Source: an archaeon
GTDB taxonomy: Archaea; Hydrothermarchaeota; Hydrothermarchaeia; JALTZZ01
Direction: 5' to 3'
Length of the DNA: 21,213 bases
Assembly: GCA_027051165.1 (NCBI GenBank)
Contig: JALTZZ010000034.1
Location: 1-21,213 of the forward strand
Of the stretch, positions 6,216 through 19,448 are shown one piece after another. The notes under the pieces are model-generated. The model had not been told where the DNA came from, did not search any database, and saw only the letters and a program-made list of their open reading frames with translations. The position numbers and the translations under genes were made by a program. Each line of letters opens with the position of its first letter. Position 1 is the first letter of the stretch.

Positions 6216-6430
6216 ACATTCTCCTCCTTTAAATTCGTTGACAACTTCATCATAAATTTCTATATGAGCTTAAACACCTTATAGTCCTACGGTATCAAAT
6301 AGATTATCCATACATTTTCACTCTTTTTAGCCCTAATATCTTGAATACGGTCACATGAATATCCTCTAACAAGCTCTTCCACCCTCATAATATTCGGCTG
6401 ATTCATCCTCTTATTTTACCCTTTCGCACA

Positions 6431-6445
6431 CTCACAGCTGTGAGG
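6431..6445. promoter_or_regulatory. palindrome module copy b
   Basis: CTCACAGCTGTGAGG followed by GAATTCCATTTTTAAGCTCTCTACT arm on the plus side. Confidence 0.55.
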
Positions 6446-6473
6446 AATTCCATTTTTAAGCTCTCTACTGTTC

Positions 6474-6650
6474 ATGCTCATAAGGTTTATAAAAGATAGA
6501 AGAGGAGGCTCGGGACTCTTTGAACTCATAATGGTTATTGCGATGATAGGAGTGGTGGCGGTAGTAGCCGCAGATTTTATGAACAAAGCGGTAGATCTCG
6601 GAAGCAAAGCAAAAAACGCAACGTTGAGCGTTGTCAACTCCACAGGATAG
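6474..6650 (+). CDS. candidate 58-aa hydrophobic small protein
   Basis: ATG about 21 nt downstream of a plus-oriented palindrome plus CATTTTTAAGCTC box; hydrophobic core LIMVIAMIGVVAVVAADF; competes with the low-complexity antisense ORF 6416..6712. Confidence 0.25.
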   Translation: MLIRFIKDRRGGSGLFELIMVIAMIGVVAVVAADFMNKAVDLGSKAKNATLSVVNSTG

Positions 6651-6880
6651 TGCCTCAACGCAACAGTGTATAGTTTCTCAATAAGAGATTGCAAAAATGT
6701 TCTTATTTTCACAAAATAGGAACGATTTGAGGCATCAAACTTGCACTGAAGCTGAGTGCAAGTATAACGGAAAACCGTTATAAAAAACTATACAGTGAAA
6801 AAGTTGCAGCGAAGATTGAAAAGTATATTTCGGAATAAAGAAATTAAGGAAGATTTGGAGAGGGTAAGTTGCACTCAGCA

Positions 6881-6894
6881 TCACAGCTGTGAGG
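6881..6894. promoter_or_regulatory. palindrome module copy c (slightly degenerate left arm)
   Basis: TCACAGCTGTGAGG then ATTTGATTTTAAAAAT box; ATG 6925 is 24 nt after the box. Confidence 0.55.
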
Positions 6895-6924
6895 ATTTGA
6901 TTTTAAAAATTAGTATTATATGAG

Positions 6925-7431
6925 ATGAAGGAGTATAAGCACTATAAAAGATTGGAGAAGTGGCTTGCATCTAAAGGATTCAGCATTTTTGAGAAGATTA
7001 GGTATGGAAAGCATGAATTCGATATAGTTGGAATAAATGATATTAAAACTATCAATGTAGAGGTAAAAGAGGTGTTTTTTCAAAGATTGATAGATCAGGC
7101 GAAGAAGAGGCTGGAGCTGAAGATTTTCGATTATGTGTATATTGCTTATCCTTTCAGGAAGAAGCCCAAGGTTGATTGGCTCGCTGAATACGGCATAGGT
7201 GTTATTGATTTATCTAATAACGAGATTGTTTTATCGGCTAAGAGGCTTGAGACCGACTTTAGAGAAAAGGAGAAGTTTATCAATTATTTGTTGAGAAAGA
7301 ATTTTGAAATATCTATTGAGCATGATGACTATTATTTTCTGAAAAGAAGATTGAAGAAAGAGGGGTTTAAGAGCGTTGAAGATTTTCTGATAAAATATGC
7401 TCGGTATGAGCTTGAGGTTTATAAACGCTGA
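6925..7431 (+). CDS. PD-(D/E)xK (restriction-endonuclease/Hjc-NucS-like fold) nuclease-like protein
   Basis: 168 aa; E..L...G...hhFDIVG (D) ... NVEVKE (ExK) motif order; leaderless-type promoter (palindrome 6881, TTTTAAAAAT box, ATG at 6925). Confidence 0.6.
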   Translation: MKEYKHYKRLEKWLASKGFSIFEKIRYGKHEFDIVGINDIKTINVEVKEVFFQRLIDQAKKRLELKIFDYVYIAYPFRKKPKVDWLAEYGIGVIDLSNNEIVLSAKRLETDFREKEKFINYLLRKNFEISIEHDDYYFLKRRLKKEGFKSVEDFLIKYARYELEVYKR

Positions 7432-7450
7432 TTCTCACAGCTGTGAGAAT
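7431..7450. promoter_or_regulatory. palindrome module copy d: ATTCTCACAGCTGTGAGAAT (20-nt perfect, variant outer arms)
   Basis: Begins at the stop codon of 6925..7431; acts as its terminator hairpin; pairs with copy e across a 72-nt iteron-bearing spacer. Confidence 0.6.
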
Positions 7451-7522
7451 TATCAATTAGTTGGCAATTCGTTGGCAATGACAACAAATAGCATTCTCAA
7501 TTAATTATCAATTAGTTGACAA
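7448..7522. repeat. iteron-like direct repeats between palindromes d and e
   Basis: AATTATCAATTAGTTGGCAA (7448-7467) repeated as AATTATCAATTAGTTGACAA (7503-7522); additional TTGGCAAT at 7472. Confidence 0.7.
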
Positions 7523-7540
7523 CCCTCACAGCTGTGAAGG
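7523..7540. promoter_or_regulatory. palindrome module copy e (one mismatch: CCCTCACAGCTGTGAAGG)
   Basis: Seen directly; 72 nt from copy d. Confidence 0.5.
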
Positions 7541-7544
7541 TAAG

Positions 7545-7650
7545 CTTATACATTTTTAAGCTTATACATTTTAATGTATAATTCTTTAAAAAAGCTTATA
7601 CAGCTGAATGTATAATCTTTTTTAAATGATTATCCAGCAGAATGTATAAA
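7545..7650. repeat. nested dyad array of TTATACA / TGTATAA half-sites
   Basis: Half-site 7545-7554; full palindromes TTATACATTTTAATGTATAA (7563-7582) and TTATACAGCTGAATGTATAA (7597-7616); half-site 7641-7650; overall symmetric around ~7595; followed by TGTAACTTAGTTACA palindrome 7666-7680. Confidence 0.65.
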
Positions 7651-7736
7651 GATAGGTTGCACCTGTGTAACTTAGTTACAGGGGTGTGACTTTACCATTT
7701 CCTTTATTCTTTAAGAAAATTCTTAAGAGCAAAAAA

Positions 7737-8135
7737 TCACACCTTCACAGCTGTGAGGAACTTTCTTTTATAGTAGTGGACGGTTGAAACCGGGATTCCG
7801 AGCCTTTTTGAAACCTGCTTAACGGTTAAACCCTTTTTGAGAAGCTCAATCACGGGCTTCGGATCTCTCCTTTTAGGTCTTCCCGGCATTTTGCACTCGG
7901 CAACAAGATCAACGCCCACCTTTTCCAAAGCTCTTTTTATCTTGCTCGGAACCGCTTTGTGCAGGCTCGGCGGAATGGAAATCTCTTTTATGTTCGGAGC
8001 CTTGGAAAGAATGTGGACGAGCACCGCGGTTGAAGGTCTTATGCTCAAATGAACCTTCTCGGTTTTTTCATCGAGCTTTTCCTCAATTTCGTGGAAAATT
8101 TCTTCAATGGTTTTAGCCTGCAGCTTCACTTCCAT
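7737..8135 (-). CDS. helix-turn-helix DNA-binding protein (C-terminal HTH), candidate regulator
   Basis: 132 aa; C-terminal GRPKRR...LTVKQVSKRLGIPVSTVHYY HTH resembling resolvase/transposase-N HTH; ATG 8135 sits about 30 nt after the GTTCGAAAATCTTAAGA arm of palindrome 8178. Confidence 0.7.
   Translation of the reverse strand: MEVKLQAKTIEEIFHEIEEKLDEKTEKVHLSIRPSTAVLVHILSKAPNIKEISIPPSLHKAVPSKIKRALEKVGVDLVAECKMPGRPKRRDPKPVIELLKKGLTVKQVSKRLGIPVSTVHYYKRKFLTAVKV
7742..7758. promoter_or_regulatory. palindrome module copy f (CCTTCACAGCTGTGAGG)
   Basis: 5 nt after the stop of minus gene 7737..8135; terminator-like position. Confidence 0.55.
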
Positions 8136-8177
8136 GGGGGAATCTCTTCAACATTCCACTCTTAAGATTTTCGAACT

Positions 8178-8192
8178 CTCACAGCTGTGAGG
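8178..8192. promoter_or_regulatory. palindrome module copy g, bidirectional promoter
   Basis: Plus side GAATTCGATTTTTAAGCTTTAAGGTTGCTGGTGGTGGGT then ATG 8231; minus side GTTCGAAAATCTTAAGAG then ATG 8135. Confidence 0.65.
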
Positions 8193-8230
8193 AATTCGAT
8201 TTTTAAGCTTTAAGGTTGCTGGTGGTGGGT

Positions 8231-8563
8231 ATGTATGTTGATAAGGAGAAGCAACTTCAGGGCTTAATTAAAAGCTACATGGTGTATGCTCAGAACTTGG
8301 GGATTTCGGAGAGGGAACTTTTGGATATGATATACTATGCGGCGAGAACGAGAGGGGATCAGTATAAGTGCCTGAACTGCGTTTACTCAAGGGCGCACAA
8401 AAGCATAAACGAGAAGAAAGTTGAAAAAGAGGGAAGGATAAGCATATACGCAAGGCAGTGCGTTTTCGGGATTTTCTACAGAGAGGACTGCCCGGTTCAG
8501 GTTCCCATAATCGAGAGGAAAAATGATGAGGCTTCTCTACGAGCTGAACAGGAAAGCGAGTGA
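8231..8563 (+). CDS. cassette gene A (copy 1): 110-aa Cys-containing protein (KCLNC ... QC ... DC), unknown
   Basis: ATG at 8231 (track start 8216 is TTG) 30 nt after GATTTTTAAGC box and preceded by GGTGGTGGGT; 80-90 % identical paralog at 20097..20414. Confidence 0.6.
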   Translation: MYVDKEKQLQGLIKSYMVYAQNLGISERELLDMIYYAARTRGDQYKCLNCVYSRAHKSINEKKVEKEGRISIYARQCVFGIFYREDCPVQVPIIERKNDEASLRAEQESE

Positions 8564-8885
8564 AACCATAAGGTTCAAAGCCCTTGCATTCTGGCTCGGA
8601 AACGCTGTTAGCATCGTTGAAAGAGGAAAAATAATCAAGGCAACGGTTTTCCTCGAAGGATATCAGAAAGCTCCAAATATTGTAGTTATAAACGAAGAGA
8701 GAATTTCGTGCACGAAGAAGGGAAGGAAGTGCGATTCCTTGAGAACGAACGGCGTGTGCTCCCACGTTCTTGCCGTCCTTTACGCCGTCTGCAGAACAAC
8801 CGGCTTCAGAGGTGAGGAGTATTGGAGGCTGAAGAAAAAAGCGCAGAATTTTCTGAAAAGCTGGAGTGCAAAAAGAAAGAGGTGA
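8523..8885 (+). CDS. cassette gene B (copy 1): SWIM-type zinc-finger protein
   Basis: 120 aa; ISCTKKGRKCDSLRTNGVCSHVLAVLYA fits the SWIM CxC..CxH signature (CSHVLAVL resembles the canonical CKHILAVL); overlaps the end of A; paralog at 20389..20751. Confidence 0.7.
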   Translation: MMRLLYELNRKASETIRFKALAFWLGNAVSIVERGKIIKATVFLEGYQKAPNIVVINEERISCTKKGRKCDSLRTNGVCSHVLAVLYAVCRTTGFRGEEYWRLKKKAQNFLKSWSAKRKR

Positions 8886-9124
8886 AGAATGCGATAATAT
8901 TTATAGGTGCGACCGCAATGTATCTATTTTACGTCGTTCTGCTGGCAACCTTCATGCTCGCATACGGGAGCGATGCGAAGCAGGTTGTCGTGGACGTGAA
9001 CGGCTTCGGAGAGGCGAAAATCGAATACATAATGCTGCTATTTCTCACTCCGCTGCTCACGCTTGCTTATTACTACATAGCCGAAGAAATGAGCTGCAGA
9101 AGGTGCAGAATCAGAAAATCCTGA
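8882..9124 (+). CDS. cassette gene C (copy 1): 80-aa two-TM membrane protein with C-terminal CRRC; start re-called to GTG overlapping the B stop (GTGA)
   Basis: track ORF 8822 begins at TTG; the in-frame GTG at 8882 overlaps the B stop, and the paralog has ATG at the identical position (ATGA at 20748); hydrophobic helices IIFIGATAMYLFYVVLLATFML and IMLLFLTPLLTLAYYYI. Confidence 0.55.
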   Translation: MKNAIIFIGATAMYLFYVVLLATFMLAYGSDAKQVVVDVNGFGEAKIEYIMLLFLTPLLTLAYYYIAEEMSCRRCRIRKS

Positions 9125-9260
9125 ACTCCCCCTTTCTCAGCTTTTCTTCAATCTTCTTCAGCTTTTTGTAATCGAGCCCGTATTTTTCCGCAGTCTCCTT
9201 CCATCTTCCGTTGCCCAGAAGAATTTGTATCATGTCGTGAAGCTTGATCACGATCTTCAT
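9111..9260 (-). CDS. cassette gene D (copy 1): convergent 49-aa protein, possible mini-HTH
   Basis: Not in track (<60 aa). MKIVIKLHDMIQILLGNGRWKETAEKYGLDYKKLKKIEEKLRKGEFRIF. Minus-strand palindrome 9289 plus GAATTCGATTTTTAAAATTTTATAAAAAT box, then ATG. 3' end overlaps C by 14 nt antisense. Paralog at 20977..21126. Confidence 0.45.
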   Translation of the reverse strand: MKIVIKLHDMIQILLGNGRWKETAEKYGLDYKKLKKIEEKLRKGEFRIF

Positions 9261-9288
9261 ATTTTTATAAAATTTTAAAAATCGAATT

Positions 9289-9303
9289 CTTCACAGCTGT
9301 GAG
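9289..9303. promoter_or_regulatory. palindrome module copy h
   Basis: CTTCACAGCTGTGAG; minus side GAATTCGATTTTTAAAATTTTATAAAAAT then ATG 9260 (gene D1). Confidence 0.55.
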
Positions 9304-9425
9304 TTCCTAAAAAAGCATCTGCAGCACATTCTGAGAATTTCGTTTACCCTGCAGCTCCACGTGCACTCAATGCAGCAGTTCTTTTCACAGCTCCTGCACC
9401 TTTTCAATCCTGCTTCCTCGCACAT
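9291..9425 (-). CDS. candidate 44-aa cysteine-rich peptide (10 Cys)
   Basis: MCEEAGLKRCRSCEKNCCIECTWSCRVNEILRMCCRCFFRNSQL; same strand, 46 nt after 9472..9786; stop lies inside palindrome 9289; could instead be an artefact of CTGCAGC repeats. Confidence 0.25.
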   Translation of the reverse strand: MCEEAGLKRCRSCEKNCCIECTWSCRVNEILRMCCRCFFRNSQL

Positions 9426-9786: not shown

Positions 9787-10633
9787 GCGAGCATCCCCTG
9801 CCAGCTATATGAGGTAAAAAGCACTGACAGCTTATTTTTTCAAGCTTTTTAACCCTTTTAACTCCCTCTTTACCTTTTAAATCAGCCTTGCTGAAAATAT
9901 TCATCAGCCTTTCGTAATCCTCGGGAAAGAACCTCTTTATTTTCATGATCTTTTCCTCTGAGAGATCGTGGAGCATGCACATGCATTCCCCGCTCATAGA
10001 AATAGCTTTATACACGGGATTAACAGGCAGACTGGCAGCTTTTATGTATTCTTCAACCTTTTCTCTGTTCCAATCTAATATAGGACAGTAGCTGTATTCT
10101 TTGTGCCTTCCCTTATACACTTTGTTCGTCTTCAGATACTCGCCGTAAATCTCAAATCTCCTTGAGCTCTCGTGAATTCTTATCCCGTTCACCGACAGCT
10201 TCACACCGTTTATTGATTTTAAGAACTTGGACAGAGGCTGATACTTGAGAACACGGAAGCACCACCTGCATCTGCCGTGTAAAGGCACACCCCACCTTTT
10301 TAGTCCATCTTCAAAGCTCATCTCGGGCTTTAAAACCTTGAAGTCGAAGGGATACCTCTTAACGAACTCCCTGATAAACTGCTTGCATGCGGAGATTCCT
10401 ATTCCCGTATCAATGTGAATTATAGTTGCTTTTACGCTCAGCTTGGCGGTTTTGTAAAGCCTGTAGAAAACATCTAAAGCAACCATGCTGTCCTTACCGC
10501 CGCTGAAGAGAATGAAGATGTTTTTGGGCCTGTAAAGCTCAACAACCTTCTTTAAATTCTCAGCTTCCTCTAAAAGTCCAAATCTCCTTAATAAATCCGC
10601 TTCTTTAAAAAACTTCTGCAGAGTCATCTGCAT
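9779..10633 (-). CDS. PAPS reductase / PP-loop ATP pyrophosphatase family protein (CysH/DndC-like fold)
   Basis: 284 aa; FSGGKDS PP-loop; DWNREKVEEYIKAASLPVNPVYKA..SMSGECMCM aligns with the CysH-family DWxxxDVWxYIxxxxLPYNPLY..GYxSIGC motif; C-terminal Cys cluster; promoter is palindrome 10676 plus CTTTAAAAG box about 30 nt before ATG 10633. Confidence 0.85.
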   Translation of the reverse strand: MQMTLQKFFKEADLLRRFGLLEEAENLKKVVELYRPKNIFILFSGGKDSMVALDVFYRLYKTAKLSVKATIIHIDTGIGISACKQFIREFVKRYPFDFKVLKPEMSFEDGLKRWGVPLHGRCRWCFRVLKYQPLSKFLKSINGVKLSVNGIRIHESSRRFEIYGEYLKTNKVYKGRHKEYSYCPILDWNREKVEEYIKAASLPVNPVYKAISMSGECMCMLHDLSEEKIMKIKRFFPEDYERLMNIFSKADLKGKEGVKRVKKLEKISCQCFLPHIAGRGCSHE

Positions 10634-10675
10634 GTTAATCCCCTCTGAGACGGCTTTCTTTTAAAGCTTTCTGAA

Positions 10676-10690
10676 CCTCACAGCTGTGAG
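10676..10690. promoter_or_regulatory. palindrome module copy i
   Basis: Minus side GTTCAGAAAGCTTTAAAAGAAAGC then ATG 10633 (PAPS-reductase-like gene). Confidence 0.6.
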
Positions 10691-10753
10691 AAACCGAGTG
10701 CTCGGCATAAAGCATCAGAATGATTTTTTTCAGAGAAATAATGTATTCCGTGC

Positions 10754-11323
10754 TCACTTCTCCCCGCATATGAACTTCACTATGCTTTCAAGCTTCTTCT
10801 TCAGCTTTGAATCAGCTTCGAAGCTCTCTATGTCGTTTCTTATAAGCCAAGAATCGAGCTTCTTTATGTAGGGAATCCACTCTATAAGCTGCAAACCCAG
10901 CTCCTTGGCTACGCTCAAAGCCTCTTTTTCGCTGGCAGATAGATTTACCACGACACCTAAAACCCCGCATCCGCAGTTATAAGCAGTTTCGACGAGCTCC
11001 TTGGCTACGAGAACGTTGTGCCTGTGCGGCAGAGTTATCAAAACCAGATCCATCGGATTTTCCTTCAAATACAGGAAGCTCTGCTTCTCCCTCGGGAAGA
11101 CAACGATTCCCAATCCAGCTCCTTTCTTAGCCTTGTTGTATAGTTTTGTCAGCTTTCCGAGCTCGTCGAAGTCGTAAACTCTGATATCAAATTCTTTTGC
11201 TATTAAGCTTGCGATAGTGCACTTGCCTGAGTTGTTCTCTCCTATAAATCCCACCGGCTTGCTCAGAGAATAAACCTTCTCCTCCTTTTTCAAAAAGTCC
11301 TTAAGCATGTTGTCGAGGTTCAT
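10754..11323 (-). CDS. small P-loop NTPase (Walker A GENNSGKCT, Walker-B-like DLVLITL)
   Basis: 189 aa; leaderless-type start about 22 nt after CTTATAAGC box next to perfect palindrome 11351..11370. Confidence 0.65.
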   Translation of the reverse strand: MNLDNMLKDFLKKEEKVYSLSKPVGFIGENNSGKCTIASLIAKEFDIRVYDFDELGKLTKLYNKAKKGAGLGIVVFPREKQSFLYLKENPMDLVLITLPHRHNVLVAKELVETAYNCGCGVLGVVVNLSASEKEALSVAKELGLQLIEWIPYIKKLDSWLIRNDIESFEADSKLKKKLESIVKFICGEK

Positions 11324-11350
11324 GCCATACTTGTGAGCTTATAAGCTTGA

Positions 11351-11370
11351 TTCCTCACAGCTGTGAGGAA
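11351..11370. promoter_or_regulatory. palindrome module copy j: TTCCTCACAGCTGTGAGGAA (20-nt perfect), bidirectional promoter
   Basis: Plus side TTGATTTTTTAAG then ATG 11398; minus side CAAGCTTATAAGCTC then ATG 11323. Confidence 0.65.
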
Positions 11371-11397
11371 TTGATTTTTTAAGTTTAAGTTATCCTT

Positions 11398-12096
11398 ATG
11401 ATAGAGATAGAAGCCGCCGCCGACGATGAAAAAATTCGCGGGAGAGTTCATCTGCACATAGACAGAAGAGTGAAAAGCAGAGGGATCTATGTTAGACTTT
11501 TCGGAGCAGAAGAAGTTAGAATTGTCGATCGTGTTGATAAAAAACTTAGAAAAGCAAAAAACATAATAATAGATGAAATAAGGAAGATTAAAGATAAAGG
11601 AGAGCTCTTCGGCAGCTATACTTTAAGCTTTGAATTCAAACTTCCGGAGAATCGTCTGCCAACATACAGAGGGGTTTACGTGAATATATTTTACAAAGTG
11701 GCTACATGGATTGATATACCGTTCAGATTCGATATTAAAGCAGAAAAAGAAATTGAAATTTTGCCTAAGTGCAGCATGCCGTATAAATTACGGAAATCCT
11801 TCTTAAATAAGGCTGTATTTAGGAGAGGGGAAATTATAAGAGGGAGAATTGAAGGTAGAAGCAGGGTAAAGCTCGTTTGTGTTGAGAGTGCGGACACGAA
11901 GCATGTCAGCGCTAAAATAGCAGTTTACGAAAAAGAGGTTGACGTGCTTTCCGGAGGTTTTTCGATAAAGATACCGAATGATGCTCCCTTCAGCTATGCC
12001 GGGAAGCTTTCCTCTGTTGCGTGGTATCTTGTTGTCGGTGGTGAGCACATACCGATAGCCGTTCTTCCTCACAGCTGTGAGGAATTGATTTTTTAA
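11398..12096 (+). CDS. hypothetical 232-aa protein (beta-rich, arrestin/Spo0M-like impression only)
   Basis: ORF begins 28 nt after GATTTTTTAAG box of palindrome 11351; ends inside palindrome 12065 (PHSCEE encoded by the repeat). Confidence 0.55.
   Translation: MIEIEAAADDEKIRGRVHLHIDRRVKSRGIYVRLFGAEEVRIVDRVDKKLRKAKNIIIDEIRKIKDKGELFGSYTLSFEFKLPENRLPTYRGVYVNIFYKVATWIDIPFRFDIKAEKEIEILPKCSMPYKLRKSFLNKAVFRRGEIIRGRIEGRSRVKLVCVESADTKHVSAKIAVYEKEVDVLSGGFSIKIPNDAPFSYAGKLSSVAWYLVVGGEHIPIAVLPHSCEELIF
12065..12084. promoter_or_regulatory. palindrome module copy k (20-nt perfect)
   Basis: Overlaps the last codons of 11398..12096; plus side TTGATTTTTTAAGCTCTTTATTTGTTGGTGGTGCGGA then ATG 12122. Confidence 0.65.
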
Positions 12097-12121
12097 GCTC
12101 TTTATTTGTTGGTGGTGCGGA

Positions 12122-12439
12122 ATGGCGGGGGTTATTATTTTTGTAGATAGGATTGCGCTTTTAGTAAGTTTTGTTAAAAACGAGATAAAAAGCATCAGCA
12201 AAAACGAAACGGAAGCCGTTTTCAACGTTCTAAGCGTGGTTCATGAACTGCTGAGAGATGTAGAAGTGAAGGACGATGAACTGAAGAAAAAGCTGAGAGC
12301 TGTAAAAGATATAACGAGGGCTGAGATAGAGAGCATAGAGAAAAATCCGTTCTCAAAGGCGCTGGCGACAATTTACATTACAAAGGAGCTTTTGGAAGAT
12401 TTCCACAGCGAGGCAGAGCTTCTCGTAAAGCAGAGGTGA
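12122..12439 (+). CDS. hypothetical 105-aa protein, first gene of a coupled operon
   Basis: Starts in the conserved module tail GGTGGTGCGGAATGGCGGGG; stop overlaps the next start (GTGA). Confidence 0.5.
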   Translation: MAGVIIFVDRIALLVSFVKNEIKSISKNETEAVFNVLSVVHELLRDVEVKDDELKKKLRAVKDITRAEIESIEKNPFSKALATIYITKELLEDFHSEAELLVKQR

Positions 12440-13359
12440 GTTTCGTGGGTAGAACCTGCTACTACATTTTTTACGTGAAAAACAAGGTAAAAGCTTATCT
12501 TGTGAAGAGCGATTTCCTTGAAATGACGAGAAACAACGTATGGTTCTGCGAGACTCCAGATATCGGCATTAGAGAGCGGGAAAAAGTTGAAGAATACCTT
12601 CCAGAAATCTTTGAGCCTCCGAAGAGGTTCAAAGAGCTGGAGCTGATATACAACAACGGAACCACCAGCAAAATTTCTTATAAAGAATATAAAAAGTATG
12701 AAAGAAGCTACAATGTTCTGGACTACATAAGAAGACACGTAAAGAAGGTCAGAGTAATAAAAAGGCTTCCGGGGTATGAAGTTTACGGCTGGTGCAAGAC
12801 TGCAGAGTGCGATTTCGATGTTCTGTATCTGCTCAACGTTGCAAGGAAAATTTCGGAGAAATACGGAATCAGAGCAAGATTCGAGGATGAGGGCGAAATT
12901 TACTACGGTGATATCGTAAAAGGTGAGCTGAAGGGTATGGAAATAAGCGATGAGATTATAGCAGAGCTGAAAGAAAAGCACTTCAAAATACTTGAGGCAA
13001 GGATCCCGCTGAACATAGCAAAGTTCTTCAAGCAGTATCCGGACTGGATAGACTTCAGTATAAAAACTTTGACGGAGTTCCTTGCAACCGACGACGATTC
13101 TGTTGATATACTGTTCGGAAGGAAGAAAGGAAAGCTCAATGTTCCAGCTGGACTCTCCGCCGTAAAATTCAGCGAGAAAATGTATCCATTTGCAGCGCTG
13201 ATTCACGAAGAAACCTATGAAATGCTTGAGATCCTCAAGGGATCTCTCGACATGACGGAGGATGAGATACTTAAGCTTGCGTTTAGAGCGGTTGCAACGA
13301 AGTATAGTTACATGTTTGACAAATATATCAAAGAAGTTCCGGCGAGGTATCTGATATGA
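12436..13359 (+). CDS. hypothetical 307-aa protein
   Basis: GTG start overlapping the upstream stop; K/E-rich; ATGA overlap with the next gene; antisense ORF 12373..13401 judged spurious. Confidence 0.6.
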   Translation: MSFVGRTCYYIFYVKNKVKAYLVKSDFLEMTRNNVWFCETPDIGIREREKVEEYLPEIFEPPKRFKELELIYNNGTTSKISYKEYKKYERSYNVLDYIRRHVKKVRVIKRLPGYEVYGWCKTAECDFDVLYLLNVARKISEKYGIRARFEDEGEIYYGDIVKGELKGMEISDEIIAELKEKHFKILEARIPLNIAKFFKQYPDWIDFSIKTLTEFLATDDDSVDILFGRKKGKLNVPAGLSAVKFSEKMYPFAALIHEETYEMLEILKGSLDMTEDEILKLAFRAVATKYSYMFDKYIKEVPARYLI

Positions 13360-14015
13360 TAAAGTATAGATGTCTCGCAGTAACCAAAAATCCGGTAGCA
13401 CTTGAACATAAAATTAAAGCAGAAATTGAAAAGTATTCTTGGTATAGATTTAGACCAAGAATTTACAGACTTCCGTTCAGAATCGCTATAACCAAGAAAA
13501 AGCCGGTGAGATTCGCATTTGCCTATGCCTATACATCCTGGCAAAAATTTTACTGCTCATCGAGCGAGAATATACCAAACAGCTATAAATTCATTGAAGT
13601 TTATCACAAATCGAAGAAGTATTTCACAGTGGTCGTAAAAGGAGAGGGTTGCAATTTCAGTGCTTATCTCTGCGTCATAATTCTCAACAGACTCAGAGAG
13701 CTTTGGAAAGAAGCGTATATAATAATCAAAAGAAATGATGACTACAAATACGGAGAGCTGAAAGATGATATGGTTGTGGGCGAGGACGGAATTAAATATC
13801 TCATTGTTGAGGAGCTGTTCTTCGAGGAATACGAAAAGCATCTGAAAGAAATAGAAGTTCCAGAGCTTTTAGCCGAACGTCTGGATTTGATAGAAACAGG
13901 CATAGAGAGGCTTAAAACCAAGCTTATATTTCCGCCCGTGAGGAGAATAATAAGAATACGAGAAGCTCGCAGAGAAATACGGATCCTTCGAAAATGCAGT
14001 ATATCATATATTTAG
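13356..14015 (+). CDS. hypothetical 219-aa protein
   Basis: ATGA-coupled to 12436..13359; basic C-terminal tail RRIIRIREARREIRILRK. Confidence 0.55.
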   Translation: MIKYRCLAVTKNPVALEHKIKAEIEKYSWYRFRPRIYRLPFRIAITKKKPVRFAFAYAYTSWQKFYCSSSENIPNSYKFIEVYHKSKKYFTVVVKGEGCNFSAYLCVIILNRLRELWKEAYIIIKRNDDYKYGELKDDMVVGEDGIKYLIVEELFFEEYEKHLKEIEVPELLAERLDLIETGIERLKTKLIFPPVRRIIRIREARREIRILRKCSISYI

Positions 14016-14132
14016 AGCCGTTGCCGGCGATGAATACAGGCTCAGCGTCCCGGCGAGATATTTAATTTAGTTTTTTTGTTTATTTTTTAACGGAAAGTTT
14101 TATTATCGTGAAGGGTTAAATAGTATAACATT

Positions 14133-15143
14133 ATGATAACTGTGCTTGAATTGGAGAATTTTAGGGGAGTAAAAAAAGGCAGGATAGAATTAGCTCCGCT
14201 TACAATTCTCCTCGGTGGAAACAACTCCGGAAAAACAACAATCCTTGAAGCACTTTTCTTAGCTCCAAATCCCTTCCGTGGAGTTCCTTATTCTTTAAAA
14301 CCTTATAATGCAGCAGTAGCAGTCCTTCGTTATCTTCATGAAACTTTGGACAGCAAAGGTTATGCCTTCTTACTTTACAATTATATTTTAAACTCTGCTA
14401 AAATATCTTGCAGAGCTGATAATATGCATTACAGTCTCGTTTTTTCGAAGGAACAACCTTCACAAGACCTCATTTCAGTAATTTTAACCAAGCAAGATTC
14501 TTCTTGGACTGTAGGAAGATTATCAACTGTACATGATAATATCACTCCAATAAGTTCAGAATTGTATATGAAGAATACTCTTCTTATTTCCTCAAAACTC
14601 AGAGATTATGGATACCGATATATTGAGGAGAACTGGGCAGCCATTATAAACCTCGGAATATGCAGAAAAGTTGCAAAGGAAACTTCTGAGCTTGTTTCTG
14701 AAAATTATATAGATATAACCATGGAGCCTTTCCTTGGAGGACAACTTGCTATCTATGCATTTTTGGAGGACGGAAGGAGGATAAGGCTGGGAGATCTCGG
14801 TGAGGGTGTTCAGAACTACATACTTGCGAGAGTACTCTACGAAGTGGCAAAGCCAGAGACCCTTCTGTGGGATGACGTTGAGGCGCACTTTAATCCAAGG
14901 ATGCTCTTAAGAATTGCGGAATGGTTCTCCGAACTTATAGAGAAAAATAAACAGGTTATAGTTTCCACGCACAGCTTAGAAGCGGCTAAAATAATTGCTG
15001 GCATGGCTGAAGAAAAGGCAAGAATATACCTCACATCTTTAAAAGACGGTGAGCTTAAAGCTAAAAGCCTCACTCTTAAAGAAGTTGAAGAGCTACAGGA
15101 AGCCGGGATTGATGTAAGAGTTGCGGAGCCGATGCTGCTATGA
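14133..15143 (+). CDS. ABC-type / AAA_21-OLD-like ATPase (defence-associated ATPase family)
   Basis: 336 aa; N-terminal LENFRG...LTILLGGNNSGKTTILEAL Walker A; C-terminal LLWDDVEAHFNP (Walker B-like DD) and QVIVSTHSLE (H-loop); 117-nt AT-rich promoter region upstream; ATGA-coupled to the next gene. Confidence 0.8.
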   Translation: MITVLELENFRGVKKGRIELAPLTILLGGNNSGKTTILEALFLAPNPFRGVPYSLKPYNAAVAVLRYLHETLDSKGYAFLLYNYILNSAKISCRADNMHYSLVFSKEQPSQDLISVILTKQDSSWTVGRLSTVHDNITPISSELYMKNTLLISSKLRDYGYRYIEENWAAIINLGICRKVAKETSELVSENYIDITMEPFLGGQLAIYAFLEDGRRIRLGDLGEGVQNYILARVLYEVAKPETLLWDDVEAHFNPRMLLRIAEWFSELIEKNKQVIVSTHSLEAAKIIAGMAEEKARIYLTSLKDGELKAKSLTLKEVEELQEAGIDVRVAEPMLL

Positions 15144-15829
15144 GGCTGTATCCGCTTGATCAAACAAGTGGAACAGCAGGAAATCTACGTGAAATATCAA
15201 AAGAATTGAAAATAAAAATATTAACATTTTATGTTAGAGAAAGAATTACATCCCTAATAGTTTTAGCGGATGGTCGGCACGACGATATTGCAGTAGCCTT
15301 AATTGCACATCATCAAAACGGTAGATATACTGTCGGTATAGTTAAGCCAAAAGGTAAAACAAGATATGCGTGTATAGAAATTCTACCTTCGTATGTCAAA
15401 ATAGGTAATATTAGGAAAATAGCGTTCTTTATAGATCAAGAAGATGAGAGTTTGGAAAGTGTCTATCGAACAGCCGAGAACAAGCTAAGAAAGACTGTAA
15501 ATGACTTTGAGGTCTTAGATGAGCGGGAAAGAGTAAAAATATACAGATGCAACTACGGTGGAAAGGAATTCGATTTTATATTTGTTGTCAACGGTCTTAA
15601 CGATATTCCAGCAAGAAAACACTGTATAGAAGATCATTTTATCCATGTTGCTATGAATATAAACCCTTCCATAAACATTAGCAGTGAAATAGACCCTAAA
15701 GTATTTTGGAAACGGCTTAATGAAGATATTAAGAAAGATGTTCTGAAGCAGCTGAAGGGAAACAGAAGGCTTTTGAGGGATAATTTTCCCCAGCAGGTAT
15801 ACGGATGCGAACTGCTTGAAAAAGATTAA
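15140..15829 (+). CDS. 229-aa partner of the ABC-like ATPase; acidic LIVLADGRHDD motif (possible divergent Toprim/nuclease-like, unverified)
   Basis: ATGA overlap with the ATPase stop; conserved-looking acidic patches SLIVLADGRHDDIAV and EFDFIFVVNGLND; ends 12 nt before palindrome 15841. Confidence 0.6.
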   Translation: MRLYPLDQTSGTAGNLREISKELKIKILTFYVRERITSLIVLADGRHDDIAVALIAHHQNGRYTVGIVKPKGKTRYACIEILPSYVKIGNIRKIAFFIDQEDESLESVYRTAENKLRKTVNDFEVLDERERVKIYRCNYGGKEFDFIFVVNGLNDIPARKHCIEDHFIHVAMNINPSINISSEIDPKVFWKRLNEDIKKDVLKQLKGNRRLLRDNFPQQVYGCELLEKD

Positions 15830-15840
15830 TCTAAAATGCA

Positions 15841-15856
15841 CCTCACAGCTGTGAGG
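15841..15856. promoter_or_regulatory. palindrome module copy l (16-nt perfect), bidirectional terminator position
   Basis: Lies between convergent gene ends 15829 (+) and 15888 (-). Confidence 0.55.
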
Positions 15857-15887
15857 ATTAACCCGATGAAAGGAGGATTGAAAGAAA

Positions 15888-16205
15888 CTATTTGAATCCG
15901 CTTTTTAAAATAGCCTTAGCCAAATTTTCATCCCTCTGCTCAGAGAACTGATTTAGCCTTTCCCTCATTCTCGTAATAACGTTCTTAAGCTCTTCAATTT
16001 CCTTCTCTTTTCTTCTTATTTCTAAAAAAAGAGTTGTATTTTCATCTTTAAGCTCTTTTATCTGTTTCTTCAGCTTTGCGGTCTTCTTTTCCGTAAGCAA
16101 ACCTGAAAACACGAGCTCGCTGATAAAAGCTAAAATAAGAAAGATTATCATTGTGTTTAAATCTTCCTGCATTCCCGCAATAAAGGCGAAGACAACGCCT
16201 ATCAT
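15888..16205 (-). CDS. small membrane protein with N-terminal TM region and coiled-coil tail
   Basis: 105 aa; MIGVVFAFIAG...IIFLILAFISELVFSGLL then a K/E heptad-like region; ATGA-coupled to 16202..16546. Confidence 0.55.
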   Translation of the reverse strand: MIGVVFAFIAGMQEDLNTMIIFLILAFISELVFSGLLTEKKTAKLKKQIKELKDENTTLFLEIRRKEKEIEELKNVITRMRERLNQFSEQRDENLAKAILKSGFK

Positions 16206-16546
16206 GATGGTGTGTAGCCGAAGAACTTCTCGGCGAGGACTTTTATCAAATACGGACCTGCGAGCACGCCTATCGCGGTAATAGCTCCGGCTGCAATGAT
16301 CCCGGTTGCCATCGTGTCCATCCTCGCTCCTACCTCACCGGGCACCTTCTTGGCAAGCGATTTTACTATGAAACCTATTGCGGTGGCGAGCATTCCCAAA
16401 AAGAACCCTATTTTCTGAACTCCCTCAAGCCACTGTGCAAGTGCTGTAGCTATCTGGCTTAAGCTTGGTCCTGATATGGACTGTGCATGCACGGTATCAA
16501 GAAGTGCTAATACAGCCAAACCTATGAGCAGCATTCTCGGGTTCAT
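16202..16546 (-). CDS. secreted small hydrophobic protein, TrbC/VirB2-pilin-like architecture
   Basis: 114 aa; signal peptide MNPRMLLIGLAVLALLDTVHA|Q then two hydrophobic segments (IGFFLGMLATAIGFIV; GIIAAGAITAIGVLAGPYLI); promoter is palindrome 16573 plus TTTAAAAGC box then ATG. Confidence 0.55.
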   Translation of the reverse strand: MNPRMLLIGLAVLALLDTVHAQSISGPSLSQIATALAQWLEGVQKIGFFLGMLATAIGFIVKSLAKKVPGEVGARMDTMATGIIAAGAITAIGVLAGPYLIKVLAEKFFGYTPS

Positions 16547-16572
16547 GGCTTGTTGTCAGCTTTTAAACTGAT

Positions 16573-16592
16573 TTCCTCACAGCTGTGAGGAA
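16573..16592. promoter_or_regulatory. palindrome module copy m (20-nt perfect)
   Basis: Abuts the stop of 16593..17150 (-); minus side CAGTTTAAAAGCTGACAACAAGCC then ATG 16546. Confidence 0.65.
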
Positions 16593-17150
16593 TCAGCGGG
16601 GTCTGTAGTATTCTCTGTCTTTTCTTATCAATCGATTCTCAAACAACTCTGCAGTAGCTCTATACACTTCCTGCCTGCTCATGTCTAAATAGTTCATTAT
16701 CTGCGAAAAAGTCGCTCCGTTATTCTGTTTAATAAATTCATAAACCCTTCTTGCAGATTCGCTGAGATTTTTAGTTTTTTCTTCATCGGATTTCTGATAT
16801 TCTTTTCTTTCTTCTCTTCTTCTGATTTCGCTCTCATACTCTCGAAAGGATTGATTTTTTAACTCTTCGAGAATCTGCAGAATCAGATCTACTTTCCTTT
16901 CTATTTTATCGAGCTTTTCCAAGATTTCCGTGCTCTGACCTGCCGTGCTTATAGAGATTTTCTGCAGCATCTGCTTTGCAACATAGCTTCTCGCTCTCAT
17001 TATTTTTTCCTGTAGATCTGGGGCATTCTGATAGTCGTCCCTGTATTCCGCAAGCTCCTGCAGAAATTTTATTTTTTCCTCCTCACTCTTACCTTCCAAA
17101 GCCTTTTCTATAAACTTCTTAGCATCCTCTATAAACAGCTCGTCCATCAT
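16593..17150 (-). CDS. winged-helix transcriptional regulator with N-terminal coiled coil
   Basis: 185 aa; C-terminal ARRVYEFIKQNNGATFSQIMNYLDMSRQEVYRATAELFENRLIRK wHTH; bracketed by palindromes 16573 (3' end) and 17179 (promoter). Confidence 0.7.
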   Translation of the reverse strand: MMDELFIEDAKKFIEKALEGKSEEEKIKFLQELAEYRDDYQNAPDLQEKIMRARSYVAKQMLQKISISTAGQSTEILEKLDKIERKVDLILQILEELKNQSFREYESEIRRREERKEYQKSDEEKTKNLSESARRVYEFIKQNNGATFSQIMNYLDMSRQEVYRATAELFENRLIRKDREYYRPR

Positions 17151-17178
17151 GCCTTGTTAGGAGCTTTTAAATTAATTT

Positions 17179-17194
17179 CCTCACAGCTGTGAGG
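17179..17194. promoter_or_regulatory. palindrome module copy n, bidirectional promoter
   Basis: Plus side TTCAGCATTTTTAAGCTCTCTTATTTTTCGGTGTGAGGG then ATG 17234; minus side AATTAATTTAAAAGCTCCTAACAAGGC then ATG 17150. Confidence 0.65.
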
Positions 17195-17233
17195 TTCAGC
17201 ATTTTTAAGCTCTCTTATTTTTCGGTGTGAGGG

Positions 17234-17860
17234 ATGGCGGGGAGATTTGTAGATGCTTTTTTTAGGAAGTTCTATTTTGACAAGTGGGATGAGAAATGGC
17301 AAGAAAAAAGAGATTACTATATAATAAGCCATCAGCACGGAGATCACATAAGAAAACCAGAATACATACCAGAAGGAACTGAAATAATCGTTTCAGAGCA
17401 CAGATTTAAGAGATATACAGTATTCAGCAATTTCAAGCCAACGGTTATAAAAGAAAAAGAATTTGTAAGTTTTGGGGATTTTAAAGTTAGAATCATAAAT
17501 ACAACTTTACACAGCGATGTAATAGAAGTTATATGGAAAAATATAAGAGCATTGCTTTTTGGAGATATAAGCGCACACCAAACGGACAGTATCATTGATA
17601 TTCTGAAGAATGCTCAGCCCGACGTGGTGATGCTGCCGGTATATTCAAAGGGAAGCAAGCATATAGAAGAGGAAATATACTACAAAGACCTCAACAGAGC
17701 GGTAGGTGAAATTGTAAAAAGGCTTCATTGGAAAAGATTTTTCCCCAAAAGACCTTACATTGTTGCCCTGCAGCACAGCGACAATGCCAAAAAACCAAAG
17801 TGGGCAGATGCTTTCGTAAAAAAGTTCCCGACAGGATACTTTCGATTTAACAATTTTTAA
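17234..17860 (+). CDS. metallo-beta-lactamase-fold hydrolase
   Basis: 208 aa; HQHGDH (HxHxDH) motif; start embedded in the conserved GGGATGGCGGGG module tail downstream of palindrome 17179. Confidence 0.8.
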   Translation: MAGRFVDAFFRKFYFDKWDEKWQEKRDYYIISHQHGDHIRKPEYIPEGTEIIVSEHRFKRYTVFSNFKPTVIKEKEFVSFGDFKVRIINTTLHSDVIEVIWKNIRALLFGDISAHQTDSIIDILKNAQPDVVMLPVYSKGSKHIEEEIYYKDLNRAVGEIVKRLHWKRFFPKRPYIVALQHSDNAKKPKWADAFVKKFPTGYFRFNNF

Positions 17861-17907
17861 GTGTTTATGTTTTTTATTTTTTGCGAAGAAAAAAGAAAAA
17901 TTCTTAT

Positions 17908-19046: not shown

Positions 19047-19106
19047 AAAATTTACCTCCTACCAAAGTTGCAAAAAACGTTGACGTTATAAAAAATTAAA
19101 AAATAA

Positions 19107-19448
19107 TTACAGCACAATTAATGGCTTCTTTTTCAGATTCTCTACAGTTATGTAGTTTTTGTCAAAGGTTACGTTTATATCGTCTCTTATAATAACTCTG
19201 AAATGCTCACCTCTCTTGAACTCTTCCTCGAAGTTCTCTGGATCAACAAGCTCTAAATCATCTGTTATCCTCTTAACTACGCCTTTCTCCATCAAAGGCT
19301 TCAATTCCTCAACGGAAAACTCTCCGCTCTCTGGAATAATGTGAATGACATCTGTATCTTCGTCTAAGTATTTCTCCCAATCCATAACGGATTTAACATC
19401 GGTTTCCAAACCGCCGTAATAAACCGTATGCTTAATCAGCTTATACAT
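19107..19448 (-). CDS. hypothetical 113-aa acidic protein (start re-called to ATG at 19448; track start 19457 is GTG)
   Basis: AGGAGGTGGT Shine-Dalgarno 4-5 nt upstream of ATG 19448. Confidence 0.55.
   Translation of the reverse strand: MYKLIKHTVYYGGLETDVKSVMDWEKYLDEDTDVIHIIPESGEFSVEELKPLMEKGVVKRITDDLELVDPENFEEEFKRGEHFRVIIRDDINVTFDKNYITVENLKKKPLIVL

Follow-up and report, generated by a model that had tools for sequence, protein, structure and literature searches.

The DNA analysed here (the window throughout) is the 21,213-nucleotide (nt) contig JALTZZ010000034.1, in which the start codons of unrelated genes, among them that of an open reading frame (ORF) at 12122, are preceded by copies of a composite module. 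The core of the module is the dyad TCACAGCTGTGA, which occurs 17 times in these 21.2 kb (GC content ~40%); all copies are exact, whereas 0.77 copies were expected from shuffled sequences even with up to two mismatches allowed. With its flanks the dyad forms a perfect palindrome of 12-16 bp, (CC)TCACAGCTGTGA(GG), and the 12-mer is invariant both in the window and in all related elements, in more than 60 copies across lineages. A preliminary description of this DNA had reported 17 dyads, a repeat unit of ~60 nt and two types of arm (alpha and beta) flanking the palindrome, and each of these proved to be real. Avoidance of the restriction site CAGCTG was rejected as an explanation of the pattern, as CAGCTG is present outside the dyads too.

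The alignment of flanks that had been proposed as a check on the arm types was run on all 34 flanks of the 17 dyads, read outward from the core. Of the 34 arms, 15 have a TATA-like box, YTTWWAAR, at exactly 9 nt past the core (GG plus 7 nt), whereas the background of this motif in the window (0.0026 per position) predicts ~0.09 arms at that offset; the dyad centre lies ~19 bp from the box centre. All eight alpha sites previously listed were correct, and seven more had been missed (left of 4119, 7435, 11355, 16577, 17181 and 21157, and right of 6881), with the result that many dyads bear alpha arms on both sides. In the weaker beta arm, G(T/G)TCGAAA or TTCAGAAA is followed by a TA-rich box displaced by 2-3 nt. 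The three reported beta sites (4131, 8160-8176 and 19945-19958) were correctly placed and correspond to 4119R, 8179L and 19961L, where dyads are named by the first position of the core and arms as left (L) or right (R); 10678L and 6432L are also of this type, and the stretch G(T/G)TCGAAA resembles the canonical archaeal B recognition element (BRE). Between co-directional genes the box always lies toward the downstream gene, six of the 17 dyad sites serve divergent gene pairs, and the dyad centre lies 36-39 or 47-50 nt from the start codon. The description of the module as a promoter unit falls short in one respect, in that the operator-like palindrome at its core is also found outside promoters: the dyad at 15843, for example, sits between the ends of two convergent genes, remote from any promoter.

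A search for the dyad-plus-box pattern returned a contig of a Geoglobus metagenome-assembled genome and five metagenome contigs (43-56% GC), with up to 10 dyads per 13 kb, and in a GTDB scan (one genome per species) the pattern was present on two contigs only, that of the Geoglobus genome (three dyads) and a short, probably misbinned one. The closest relative, L010 (NCBI JBPLHO010000065), was found by protein search and has 13 dyads in 18 kb at 36% GC. The GC-rich relatives L006, L007 and L008 (53-56% GC) carry 10, 8 and 2 dyads, respectively. They have five or six proteins in common with the window, at 26-61% identity, and their genes include ones for an archaeal histone, a HerA/TraG-like ATPase and an A24 prepilin peptidase. 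These three, together with a pilin-like protein, mark the setting as archaeal. No DNA match for 11001-19000 was obtained among INPHARED phages or PLSDB plasmids, the dyad plus box had no match in IMG/VR, where the 16-mer palindrome gave 25 single matches (chance level), protein profile searches recovered no viral or phage hallmark proteins, and a search of the archaeal literature for the palindrome yielded nothing relevant. These elements probably constitute an undescribed family of archaeal mobile elements (plasmid, virus or integrated) of Archaeoglobales. A further contig, L004 (JALTWL010000019, binned as Micavibrio; 1.4 kb, 32% GC), has a perfect dyad with an arm, GGAAATTAATTTAAAAG, identical to window 17181L; the fragment probably comes from a related archaeal element and was misbinned.

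In the other loci the box occupies offset 9 in 27 of 60 arms (background 0.001-0.003 per position), and in the intergenic regions of the relatives with 53-56% GC it is the sole AT-rich element. An information profile of 42 non-redundant arms from all elements gave the consensus core-GG-RA..GAG-YTTWTAAG-CTC; because of the symmetry of GAG-YTTWTAAG-CTC, the box plus its flanks is itself nearly palindromic. What is looked for in an archaeal BRE/TATA pair, an AT-rich 8-bp box with a purine-rich stretch (RA..GAG) immediately upstream, is found in this 42-arm profile. A bacterial sigma-70 reading, with the dyad as -35 and the box as -10 element, was rejected in view of the archaeal gene content; sigma-70-like sites numbered 18 where 20.6 were expected.

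The spacing between the box and the first ORF-opening ATG is bimodal across 43 non-redundant arms with a box. In class A (20 arms) the ATG lies 13-17 nt past the box and a Shine-Dalgarno (SD)-like motif is present in none of the 20, while in class B (15 arms) the ATG lies 23-30 nt past the box and an SD-like motif (GGTGGTG, GAGGTGGTG, GGAGGTG or GGGTGAT) is present in all 15; no arm has a distance of 18-22 nt. The class B SD starts at box +13/14, that is, at the same position as the class A ATG, behind a pyrimidine-rich stretch. Class A starts are supported by the N-terminus of the pilin-like protein (RF.DRRG), which aligns with its L006 homologue, by N-termini of equal length in 3'-phosphoadenosine-5'-phosphosulfate (PAPS) reductases, and by signal peptides that begin there. 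GGTGGT matches GGDGRD, the ribosome-binding site (RBS) consensus reported for T. kodakarensis (PMC4247193). The simplest reading of both classes would be that transcription starts ~13-14 nt past the box, in which case class A mRNAs would be leaderless and class B mRNAs would have leaders of 10-15 nt opening with the SD.

Alpha arms had been thought to continue into a conserved tail. This is true of 3 of the 15 alpha arms (12069R, 17181R and 21157R), in which a pyrimidine-rich 13 nt is followed by GGTGGTG or GGTGTGAGGG and then by the ATG; most of the others lead directly to an SD-less ATG 13-17 nt past the box. A repeat finder paired 12065-12130 with 17177-17242 (77% identity over 66 nt) and 17136-17232 with 21112-21208 (72% over 97 nt). 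GGTGGTG precedes the ATG at 8221, 12111, 20087 and 21199, and GGTGTGAGGG does so at 17224; the reported presence of GGTGGTG in both copies of a duplicated cassette (8221 and 20087) is confirmed, yet the proteins behind these arms (8179R and 20045R) start MYVDKEK. The two unrelated proteins said to share a Met-Ala-Gly start do so: ATGGCGGGG opens the ORFs at 12122 (105 residues) and 17234 (208 residues, metallo-beta-lactamase (MBL)-like), between which no similarity was detectable, and homologue searches with the MBL-like protein returned only that protein. The truncated copy at the window edge was misread as starting a gene at 21204; its ATG is at 21209 and reads ATGGT rather than ATGGCG in the window, although the L010 counterpart does read ATGGCGGGT.

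Absence of the shared start from other copies, named in advance as a finding that would refute the earlier proposal, is not what was seen, as the start is not confined to the window. Observed and expected numbers of ATGGCGGG were 3 and 0.23 in the window, 5 and 0.13 in L010, and 3 and 0.56 in L006; the L010 copies comprise four starts and one leader copy, and L006/L007/L008 have two starts and one extra copy. In every element each ATGGCGGG is either a class B start or the single inverted copy, and at least seven different protein families open with it behind class B arms:

Window: the 105-residue protein at 12122 and the 208-residue MBL-like protein at 17234.
L010: a 100-residue orthologue of the 12122 protein, a 112-residue protein, a 209-residue MBL-like protein and a 108-residue protein.
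L006/L007/L008: a 519-residue AAA+ ATPase and a 218-residue coiled-coil protein.

Between the L006 coiled-coil protein (MAGDLSL-SRIE...) and its homologue in L010, which lacks Met-Ala-Gly, the alignment starts only at residue 67 of the latter. Similarly, the 17234 protein and L010_6450 share 25% identity, with residue 2 of the former paired with residue 13 of the latter (an N-terminal offset of 11 residues), while the DNA from the dyad through ATGGCGGGG is identical at 65 of 65 nt (17178-17242 against L010 6442-6506). Because Met-Ala-Gly sits at non-homologous positions in homologous proteins, it belongs to the module and not to the proteins, as a grafted and not a homologous feature. In L010, the adjacent promoters 7505L and 6492L both read ATGGCGGGGGTTAAR and flank a two-gene insertion.

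Modules coincide with junctions between close relatives. When the window and L010 were compared by BLAST, they proved collinear in blocks of 78-90% identity, and, of the 10 ends of long homology blocks, a dyad centre is found within 10 nt of five (binomial p 3e-7) and within 60 nt of eight. Two window/L010 blocks stop precisely after ATGGCGGGG, at 17242. The arrestin-like gene 11398-12096 has as its counterpart in L010 a region encoding a 742-residue SMC/AAA_15 ATPase, and L010, whose SMC/AAA_15 ATPase is a different one at another place, lacks 13356-15829, which encodes a 219-residue protein, an AAA_15/AAA_21 ATPase with weak PtuA/MADS3-type matches and a 229-residue partner; this insertion, bounded by the arm-less dyad 15843, looks like an anti-phage defence cassette. 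A four-gene cassette at 8179-9303 (three plus-strand ORFs and a minus-strand 49-residue helix-turn-helix (HTH)-like ORF), present once in L010, is duplicated at 20045-21169 with 80-87% DNA and 73-90% protein identity and dyads at both ends; the 20045-21169 copy stands in place of two other genes between matching L010 dyads. At 3381-3935 of L008, a hicB-hicA pair lies between two dyad copies, the left arm being partly duplicated, where L006 and L007 have a single dyad. No target-site duplications or transposase were found at module copies, nor did the window ORFs match an integrase, transposase or serine/tyrosine recombinase in Pfam, NCBIfam or PHROGs. The proposal of a portable promoter, RBS and start-codon cassette placed before different genes thus holds in part: the module does combine box, SD-like motif and start codon, it fronts unrelated genes, and homology blocks end at dyads or just after ATGGCGGGG, but the evidence does not show it hopping. 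Instead, the comparisons indicate that genes are swapped between conserved modules, with no sign of a transposing unit.

The individual sites of the window are as follows.

12067-12130, plus strand: class B module with Met-Ala-Gly start; CC-TCACAGCTGTGA-GG with core 12069-12080, 7-nt purine/AT spacer 12083-12089, box TTTTTAAG 12090-12097, pyrimidine-rich 13 nt, SD-like GGTGGTG 12111-17 and ATGGCGGGG 12122-30; dyad and box overlap the final codons and stop of the upstream gene 11398-12096.
17150-17242, divergent double module: dyad 17181-17192; left arm with box 17164-17171 and ATG (minus strand) 17150, 13 nt off and without SD, heading the winged HTH (wHTH) gene 16593-17150; right arm with box 17202-17209, GGTGTGAGGG 17224-33 and ATGGCGGGG 17234-42, heading the MBL-like gene.
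21126-21213, divergent double module: dyad 21157-21168; left arm with box 21140-47 and ATG 21126 of a 49-residue HTH-like ORF; right arm, cut by the window end, with box 21178-85, GGTGGTG 21199-205 and ATG 21209.
8135-8233: dyad 8179-8190; right arm class B with box 8200-07, GGTGGTG 8221-27 and ATG 8231 (MYVDKEK); left arm beta (GTTCGAAAATCTTAAG, 8162-8176), leading to ATG 8135 of a DUF1699 plus HTH gene.
20043-20099, plus strand: dyad 20045-20056; class B with box 20066-73, GGTGGTG 20087-93 and ATG 20097; left boundary of the duplicated cassette 20045-21169, paralogue of 8179-9303.
4085-4150: dyad 4119-4130; left arm alpha with box TTTATAAA 4102-09 and ATG 4085 (746-residue secreted protein), 16 nt, no SD; right arm beta (TTTCGAAAGGCTTAAGA), facing an SPFH gene at 4216.
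6406-6476: dyad 6432-6443; right arm alpha with box 6453-60 and ATG 6474 (58-residue pilin-like protein), 13 nt; left arm beta-like (GTGCGAAAGGGTAAAATAA), facing a 39-residue ORF.
6879-6927, plus strand: dyad 6881-6892; right arm alpha with box 6902-09 and ATG 6925, 15 nt, of a 168-residue PD-(D/E)xK-nuclease-like gene.
7418-7773: dyads 7435-46, 7526-37 and 7745-56, bracketing a 290-nt non-coding repeat-rich stretch; the outer dyads lie within the 3' ends of convergent genes, into which boxes 7418-25 and 7766-73 point; none of the three dyads is followed by a start codon.
9260-9304, minus strand: dyad 9291-9302; left arm alpha with box 9274-81 and ATG 9260 (49-residue HTH-like ORF), 13 nt; right boundary of cassette 8179-9303.
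10633-10691, minus strand: dyad 10678-10689; left arm TTCAGAAAG, then CTTTAAAA (10659-66, 2-nt shift) and GAGGGGAT ahead of ATG 10633 of a PAPS-reductase-like gene.
11323-11400, divergent double class A: dyad 11355-11366, the palindrome reaching 28 bp; boxes 11338-45 and 11376-83, ATGs 11323 (minus strand) and 11398 (plus strand), 14 nt each, no SD.
15841-15856: dyad 15843-15854, lacking a box in both arms and located between the 3' ends of 15140-15829 (plus strand) and 15888-16205 (minus strand); right edge of the window-specific three-gene insertion 13356-15829.
16546-16590, minus strand: dyad 16577-16588; left arm alpha with box 16560-67 and ATG 16546, 13 nt, of a 114-residue membrane protein conserved in L006/L007.
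19940-19974, minus strand: dyad 19961-19972; left arm beta GGGTTCGAA-AAATTTTTAAAC (19940-19958), toward a GC-rich leader.
19768-19925, minus strand: conserved GC-rich leader or RNA element upstream of an 87-residue gene, 19504-19767.

Dyad and box lie in the final codons of the upstream gene at 12067-12096, 7745-7773 and 7418-7431, so that the C-termini of unrelated proteins are shaped by the module (...PHSCEELIF* at 12096, ...LTAVKV* at 7737). The 290-nt stretch at 7447-7736 contains the direct repeats AATTATCAATTAGTTGRCAA (three copies) and AAGCTTATACA (three to four copies) as well as inverted repeats with 59-nt and 41-nt arms, and may be a replication origin or centromere-like region. On the 55% GC contig L009, five dyads fall within 260 non-coding nt (1096-1354; spacings 49, 123, 37 and 49), a cluster that resembles an iteron or centromere array and shows the palindrome in use away from promoters too. 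Dyads are absent from the first 4.1 kb of the window, where 1-2000 has 27-32% GC and encodes an M78 (ImmA/IrrE-like) peptidase, followed by the 746-residue secreted protein, which is C-terminally anchored; 1-4100 may be a different module or foreign DNA. The pilin-like protein (6474-6650) has a class III signal peptide, the 114-residue membrane protein (16202-16546) has two helices and a signal peptide, and the HerA/TraG-like ATPase and A24 peptidase loci lie at 3136-4338 and 6633-7184 of L006, a set of genes that suggests a pilus or DNA-transfer apparatus and a possibly conjugative family.

An orphan copy of the Met-Ala-Gly start had been described as the footprint of an insertion event. The copy does exist: ATGGCGGGGGAGTTTTGA at 19875-19892 (plus strand) has ~14 nt in common with the tails, is the complement of a stretch of the leader, and has no dyad or box upstream of it on the plus strand. 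It is not a decaying footprint, however, because it lies in a stretch that is ~95% conserved in L010, runs opposite to the transcription of that stretch, and has an inverted equivalent in the GC-rich lineage. The leader, 19768-19925, is ~95% identical in L010 as a whole, above its flanks; read along the minus strand, it is preceded by the beta arm of 19961 and followed by the 87-residue gene, which has its own GGAGG SD. Its minus strand reads 5'-ACUCCCCCGCCAUCCGCGAUGAC, the exact antisense of the GGAUGGCGGGGGAG common to Met-Ala-Gly starts. An internal mimic, GGGCGGGGGAG, and the helix CCCCCCAGCCCG/CGGGCUGGGGG are further parts of the leader. In L006 and L007, which have diverged too far for the leader to be aligned, the layout is nevertheless the same, namely a dyad, a AAATTTAAAT-type arm and an inverted ATGGCGGGGG 86-95 nt off, and their homology block starts precisely at this inverted motif; in all, four elements have the leader motif ~80-95 nt downstream from a dyad arm. 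Immediately before the ATG, the AT-rich lineage has G in the leader copy and 6 of 7 targets, and the GC-rich lineage has A in the leader copy and 2 of 2 targets. An origin of the GC-rich stretch and its GCGGGG motif in a tRNA or att site was rejected, since ARAGORN found no tRNA and Rfam no match.

These observations led us to consider, tentatively, that the AUG-GCG-GGG start might be a sub-regulon address, with a leader or small RNA, encoded behind a beta-type promoter under dyad control, pairing through its conserved single-stranded stretch 5'-CUCCCCCGCCAUCC with every Met-Ala-Gly mRNA from the SD to codon 3 and controlling translation. Just as tentatively, genes might come under this control by recombining behind the module, and the orphan might be the antisense seed gene. 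The seed CCCCCGCCAU with its flanks has 10-13 nt of perfect complementarity to each ATGGCGGG start (window, L010 and L006), the duplexes predicted with Met-Ala-Gly starts have energies of -26 to -37 kcal/mol (6 of 7 at or below -31) against -5 to -25 for other starts, and in 80 C folds the seed is predicted to be unpaired beside a stable GC helix. Against an antisense RNA speak the fold z-score of the leader, only -2.2, the lack of an Rfam match (none at gathering score, noise only at E up to 10), the absence of compensatory changes from the sole alignable leader pair (two 95%-identical sequences), and a T5 run ahead of the motif in L006/L007; in the AT-rich lineage the antisense stretch sits in the leader of a protein-coding gene. 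A second DNA-binding protein recognising the motif would account for the data about as well.

Perfect conservation, a box register held to a single base, a fixed distance to the start and the occurrence of divergent sites lead us to infer that the palindrome is the site of a dimeric, element-encoded DNA-binding protein acting on adjacent promoters. The best candidate for this regulator, with binding predicted, is the wHTH protein 16593-17150, because it is the sole DNA-binding candidate in both lineages and its own gene lies behind a dyad. It has 185 residues; L006, L007 and L010 encode homologues, the genes of which all follow a dyad. In its AlphaFold2 model (predicted local distance difference test score, pLDDT, 80) a long coiled-coil helix precedes a C-terminal winged helix (H-H-H-wing), the best fold match of which was a Sulfolobus DNA-binding protein (TM score 0.86 on the target), with MarR/IclR-type domains also matched; weak profile matches were to Sta1 (NCBIfam), Sul7s and MarR. 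At L006 7502R a second full dyad stands between box and ATG, a position typical of repression.

Direct observations are the architecture and spacing of the module, the SD dichotomy, the fact that other elements conserve the module, and breakpoints that coincide with dyads. We consider it probable that they reflect a module in which operator, promoter and translation start are combined, which belongs to an undescribed archaeal mobile element and also acts as a junction for cassette swaps. An element-encoded dimeric protein, with the wHTH protein as candidate, would bind (CC)TCACAGCTGTGA(GG) two helical turns upstream of the box, and the arms would be promoter elements composed of the BRE-like purine-rich 7 nt and the box, alpha and beta being two sequence versions of one layout. 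Transcription would start ~13-14 nt past the box, where class A mRNAs would begin with the ATG and class B mRNAs with the SD, the ATG following ~10 nt on. The class B subset that fixes ATG-GCG-GGG would carry a conserved cis-element, most likely a post-transcriptional or second-operator target. Because the unit of ~40-65 nt recurs at nearly every transcription-unit boundary, relatives would recombine there, and cassettes would be replaced, inserted and duplicated between modules, by which the Met-Ala-Gly start would be grafted onto unrelated proteins.

Several points weigh against this proposal. The dyads 15843, 7526, L010 10462 and L010 2164 have no promoter role, and the boxes at 7435L and 7745R point into genes. 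The fold-search E-values of the wHTH protein are weak (0.009 or worse), and the protein was not found in the partial contigs L005, L009 and L004. Only two lineages are well sampled, one AT-rich (window and L010) and one GC-rich (L006 and L007). BLAST block ends favour intergenic DNA in any case, which somewhat inflates the breakpoint statistic. That a protein binds, where transcription starts, which way regulation goes and how recombination proceeds are all deduced from sequence. The inferred distance from box to start, moreover, is ~10 bp below the ~23-28 bp given as canonical for archaeal TATA elements (PMC4247193; PMC8553660).

The last point admits several readings: the box may not be the site of the TATA-binding protein (TBP), the geometry may be unusual, or transcripts may start elsewhere. 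Class B ATGs at 23-24 nt would suit the canonical distance only if the SD motifs were untranscribed. Shifting class A starts downstream to suit it was rejected because of the conserved N-termini and the lack of in-frame alternative starts. A cross-dyad promoter, in which the box fires over the palindrome at the canonical 23 bp, was rejected because the box invariably adjoins the downstream gene at single-box sites between co-directional genes, and it would also leave the clustering of ATGs at 13-17 nt unexplained; such firing may still hold for the boxes at 7435 and 7745. These promoters may use a non-canonical geometry, starting ~13 nt past a TATA-like box; each of the alternatives (firing across the dyad, a leaderless class B, misplaced class A starts) fails on part of the data.

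The palindrome could instead be chiefly a site of site-specific recombination or cleavage, integron-like, acted on for instance by the 168-residue PD-(D/E)xK-like protein (6925-7431), with promoters travelling along. Such a site would fit breakpoints that lie within 5-9 nt of the dyad centre and are not spread over the arms, promoter-less dyads between convergent gene ends at cassette edges (15843, L010 10462 and L010 2164), the hicBA insert with its duplicated dyad, the cassette duplicated from dyad to dyad, and the five dyads in 260 nt of L009; the nuclease-like gene is dyad-flanked and present in both lineages, and its L006 homologue falls just below the cut-off of UPF0102 (YraN-type endonuclease). 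We nevertheless regard this explanation as unlikely, since Pfam, NCBIfam and PHROGs reveal no integrase, transposase or serine/tyrosine recombinase, a spacer-less palindrome of 12-16 bp is short versus known recombinase cores, the nuclease assignment is weak (the single-sequence model of the 168-residue protein, with pLDDT 47, is unusable), and the 9-nt box register and the 36-50 nt start register indicate a role in transcription. It is also improbable that the module is a plain regulon, in which promoters are alike through a shared regulator, TBP and transcription factor B, and ribosome, Met-Ala-Gly is merely a favoured start context, and block ends reflect intergenic divergence. In that case one would expect, as is seen, that the architecture is kept across a 14-18% difference in GC while the box-to-SD sequence is not, that orthologous promoters (12069R in the window and 10086L in L010) share ~14 of 24 nt between box and SD, and that half of the class B genes lack the Met-Ala-Gly start. 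One would not expect 65 of 65 identical nt from the dyad through ATGGCGGGG beside ORFs of 25% identity, Met-Ala-Gly at non-homologous positions of homologous proteins, ATGGCGGGGGTTAAR in common between L010 7505L and 6492L around a two-gene insertion, a hicBA insertion that duplicates box and dyad, or whole cassettes swapped between matching dyads.

More doubtful is the view that the palindrome acts as an RNA hairpin that, with the T-run of the box, terminates or insulates transcription, the promoter being a separate neighbour. A terminator-like scan of 11000-21213 did flag seven dyads with a T-rich stretch after them, dyad 15843 lies between convergent genes, and PeSLs (described below) likewise pair a terminator hairpin with a promoter. 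Terminator-like sites show no overall enrichment, however (11 against 8.8 expected), the T-run begins 7 nt beyond the stem, the GC-rich lineage has CTTATAAG or CTTTTAAG instead, with 2-4 T only, and a 6-bp stem is marginal at Archaeoglobales growth temperatures; in addition, all 12 bases are conserved and not just their pairing, with no pairing-keeping variants among the >60 copies, which argues for recognition by a protein. A selfish repeat resembling a miniature inverted-repeat transposable element and spread through intergenic regions, already disfavoured, seems very improbable. It would account for the many copies, the palindromic core and the intergenic position, but terminal inverted repeats are missing outside the core, neither target-site duplications nor a transposase were seen, and the copies stand in exact register with start codons. 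In the scan of the genome collection, moreover, just two contigs had the motif, that of Geoglobus (three dyads) and the short, probably misbinned one, and in IMG/VR the 16-mer gives single chance matches only.

Among known systems, the closest to the proposed composite module are the PeSLs (promoter-early stem-loops) of T4-type phages, in which an upstream stop codon is followed by a stem-loop, a promoter, and an SD plus the next start codon (Arbiol et al. 2010, PMC2839356; Comeau et al. 2014, PMC4122927). They cluster at borders of variable genes, mostly of unknown function, and mediate modular shuffling, and indel or replacement junctions between close relatives fall inside the units (PMC2839356; PMC4122927). 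The window modules are likewise repeated intergenic units of hairpin or palindrome, promoter, SD and start codon, and they too mark the places where close relatives differ by an insertion, deletion or replacement. PeSL mini-circles, by contrast, have been shown experimentally, while the window modules are known from sequence alone. PeSLs have sigma-70 promoters and GC-rich terminator hairpins variable in sequence and position, whereas in the window the promoters are of archaeal type and the palindrome varies neither in sequence nor in register, a constancy suggestive of a protein operator; first codons are fixed here, and none are in the part of the PeSL description cited (PMC2839356). Nor is the setting that of a sigma-70 early promoter in a T4-like myovirus, given the archaeal histone, the A24 peptidase and the Geoglobus genome.

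Integron attC/attI sites invite comparison in that toxin-antitoxin genes and defence-like ATPases are exchanged here as cassettes that have a repeated, partly palindromic site at their borders. The cassettes of integrons usually lack a promoter and owe their mobility to the IntI tyrosine recombinase, which acts on folded attC. The window, in contrast, has no integrase match, a promoter at each site and no uniform gene orientation. Trans-acting antisense small RNAs (bacterial, with a few archaeal) pair with the SD/AUG region of several mRNAs via one seed. The conserved C-rich stretch of 10-13 nt past a regulated promoter resembles them in complementing the start region of unrelated mRNAs; here, however, complementarity is the sole basis, and the AT-rich lineage has the stretch within a protein gene's leader.

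In archaea, Ptr2, Sta1, SvtR and SSV1 F55 provide examples of a dimeric (w)HTH or ribbon-helix-helix protein that binds a dyad by the core promoter at several virus or plasmid promoters. Their sites are few and degenerate, whereas the window has 17 identical 12-mers in single-base register, and the inferred distance from box to start is ~10 bp shorter here. The KorA/KorB operators of the IncP plasmids RK2/RP4 are short perfect palindromes of one or two kinds that recur around the plasmid about a dozen times, most copies at fixed promoter positions, often divergent, and a few distant, with an element-encoded, autoregulated regulator. A palindrome repeated at a fixed promoter position, the hallmark of such a global operator, is what the window presents, with 17 of 17 copies exact, a 9-nt register to the box and 36-39 or 47-50 nt from dyad centre to start codon, and here too a few copies lie far from promoters. 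KorA and KorB are bacterial repressors acting on sigma-70 promoters, KorB being also a ParB protein, and to our knowledge their operators neither extend into the RBS and start codons nor are known as cassette junctions; the window modules are archaeal, reach the RBS and start codon, and mark cassette junctions.

If the proposal of a composite module is correct, the window would provide an archaeal counterpart of PeSLs, in which accessory genes (toxin-antitoxin systems and defence-like ATPases) are swapped while being kept under one regulator. It would also offer ~40 natural promoters with identical operators, split between leaderless and SD-led, that would be useful for studies of archaeal initiation, a possible exception to the canonical TATA-to-start distance, and a testable regulatory address embedded in the start codon and possibly read by antisense RNA, and it would flag a family of hydrothermal Archaeoglobales mobile elements that is not in phage, plasmid or IMG/VR collections. 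By analogy with the systems compared here, the module is best described as a new variant form of known PeSL-like regulatory cassettes and plasmid global-operator regulons.

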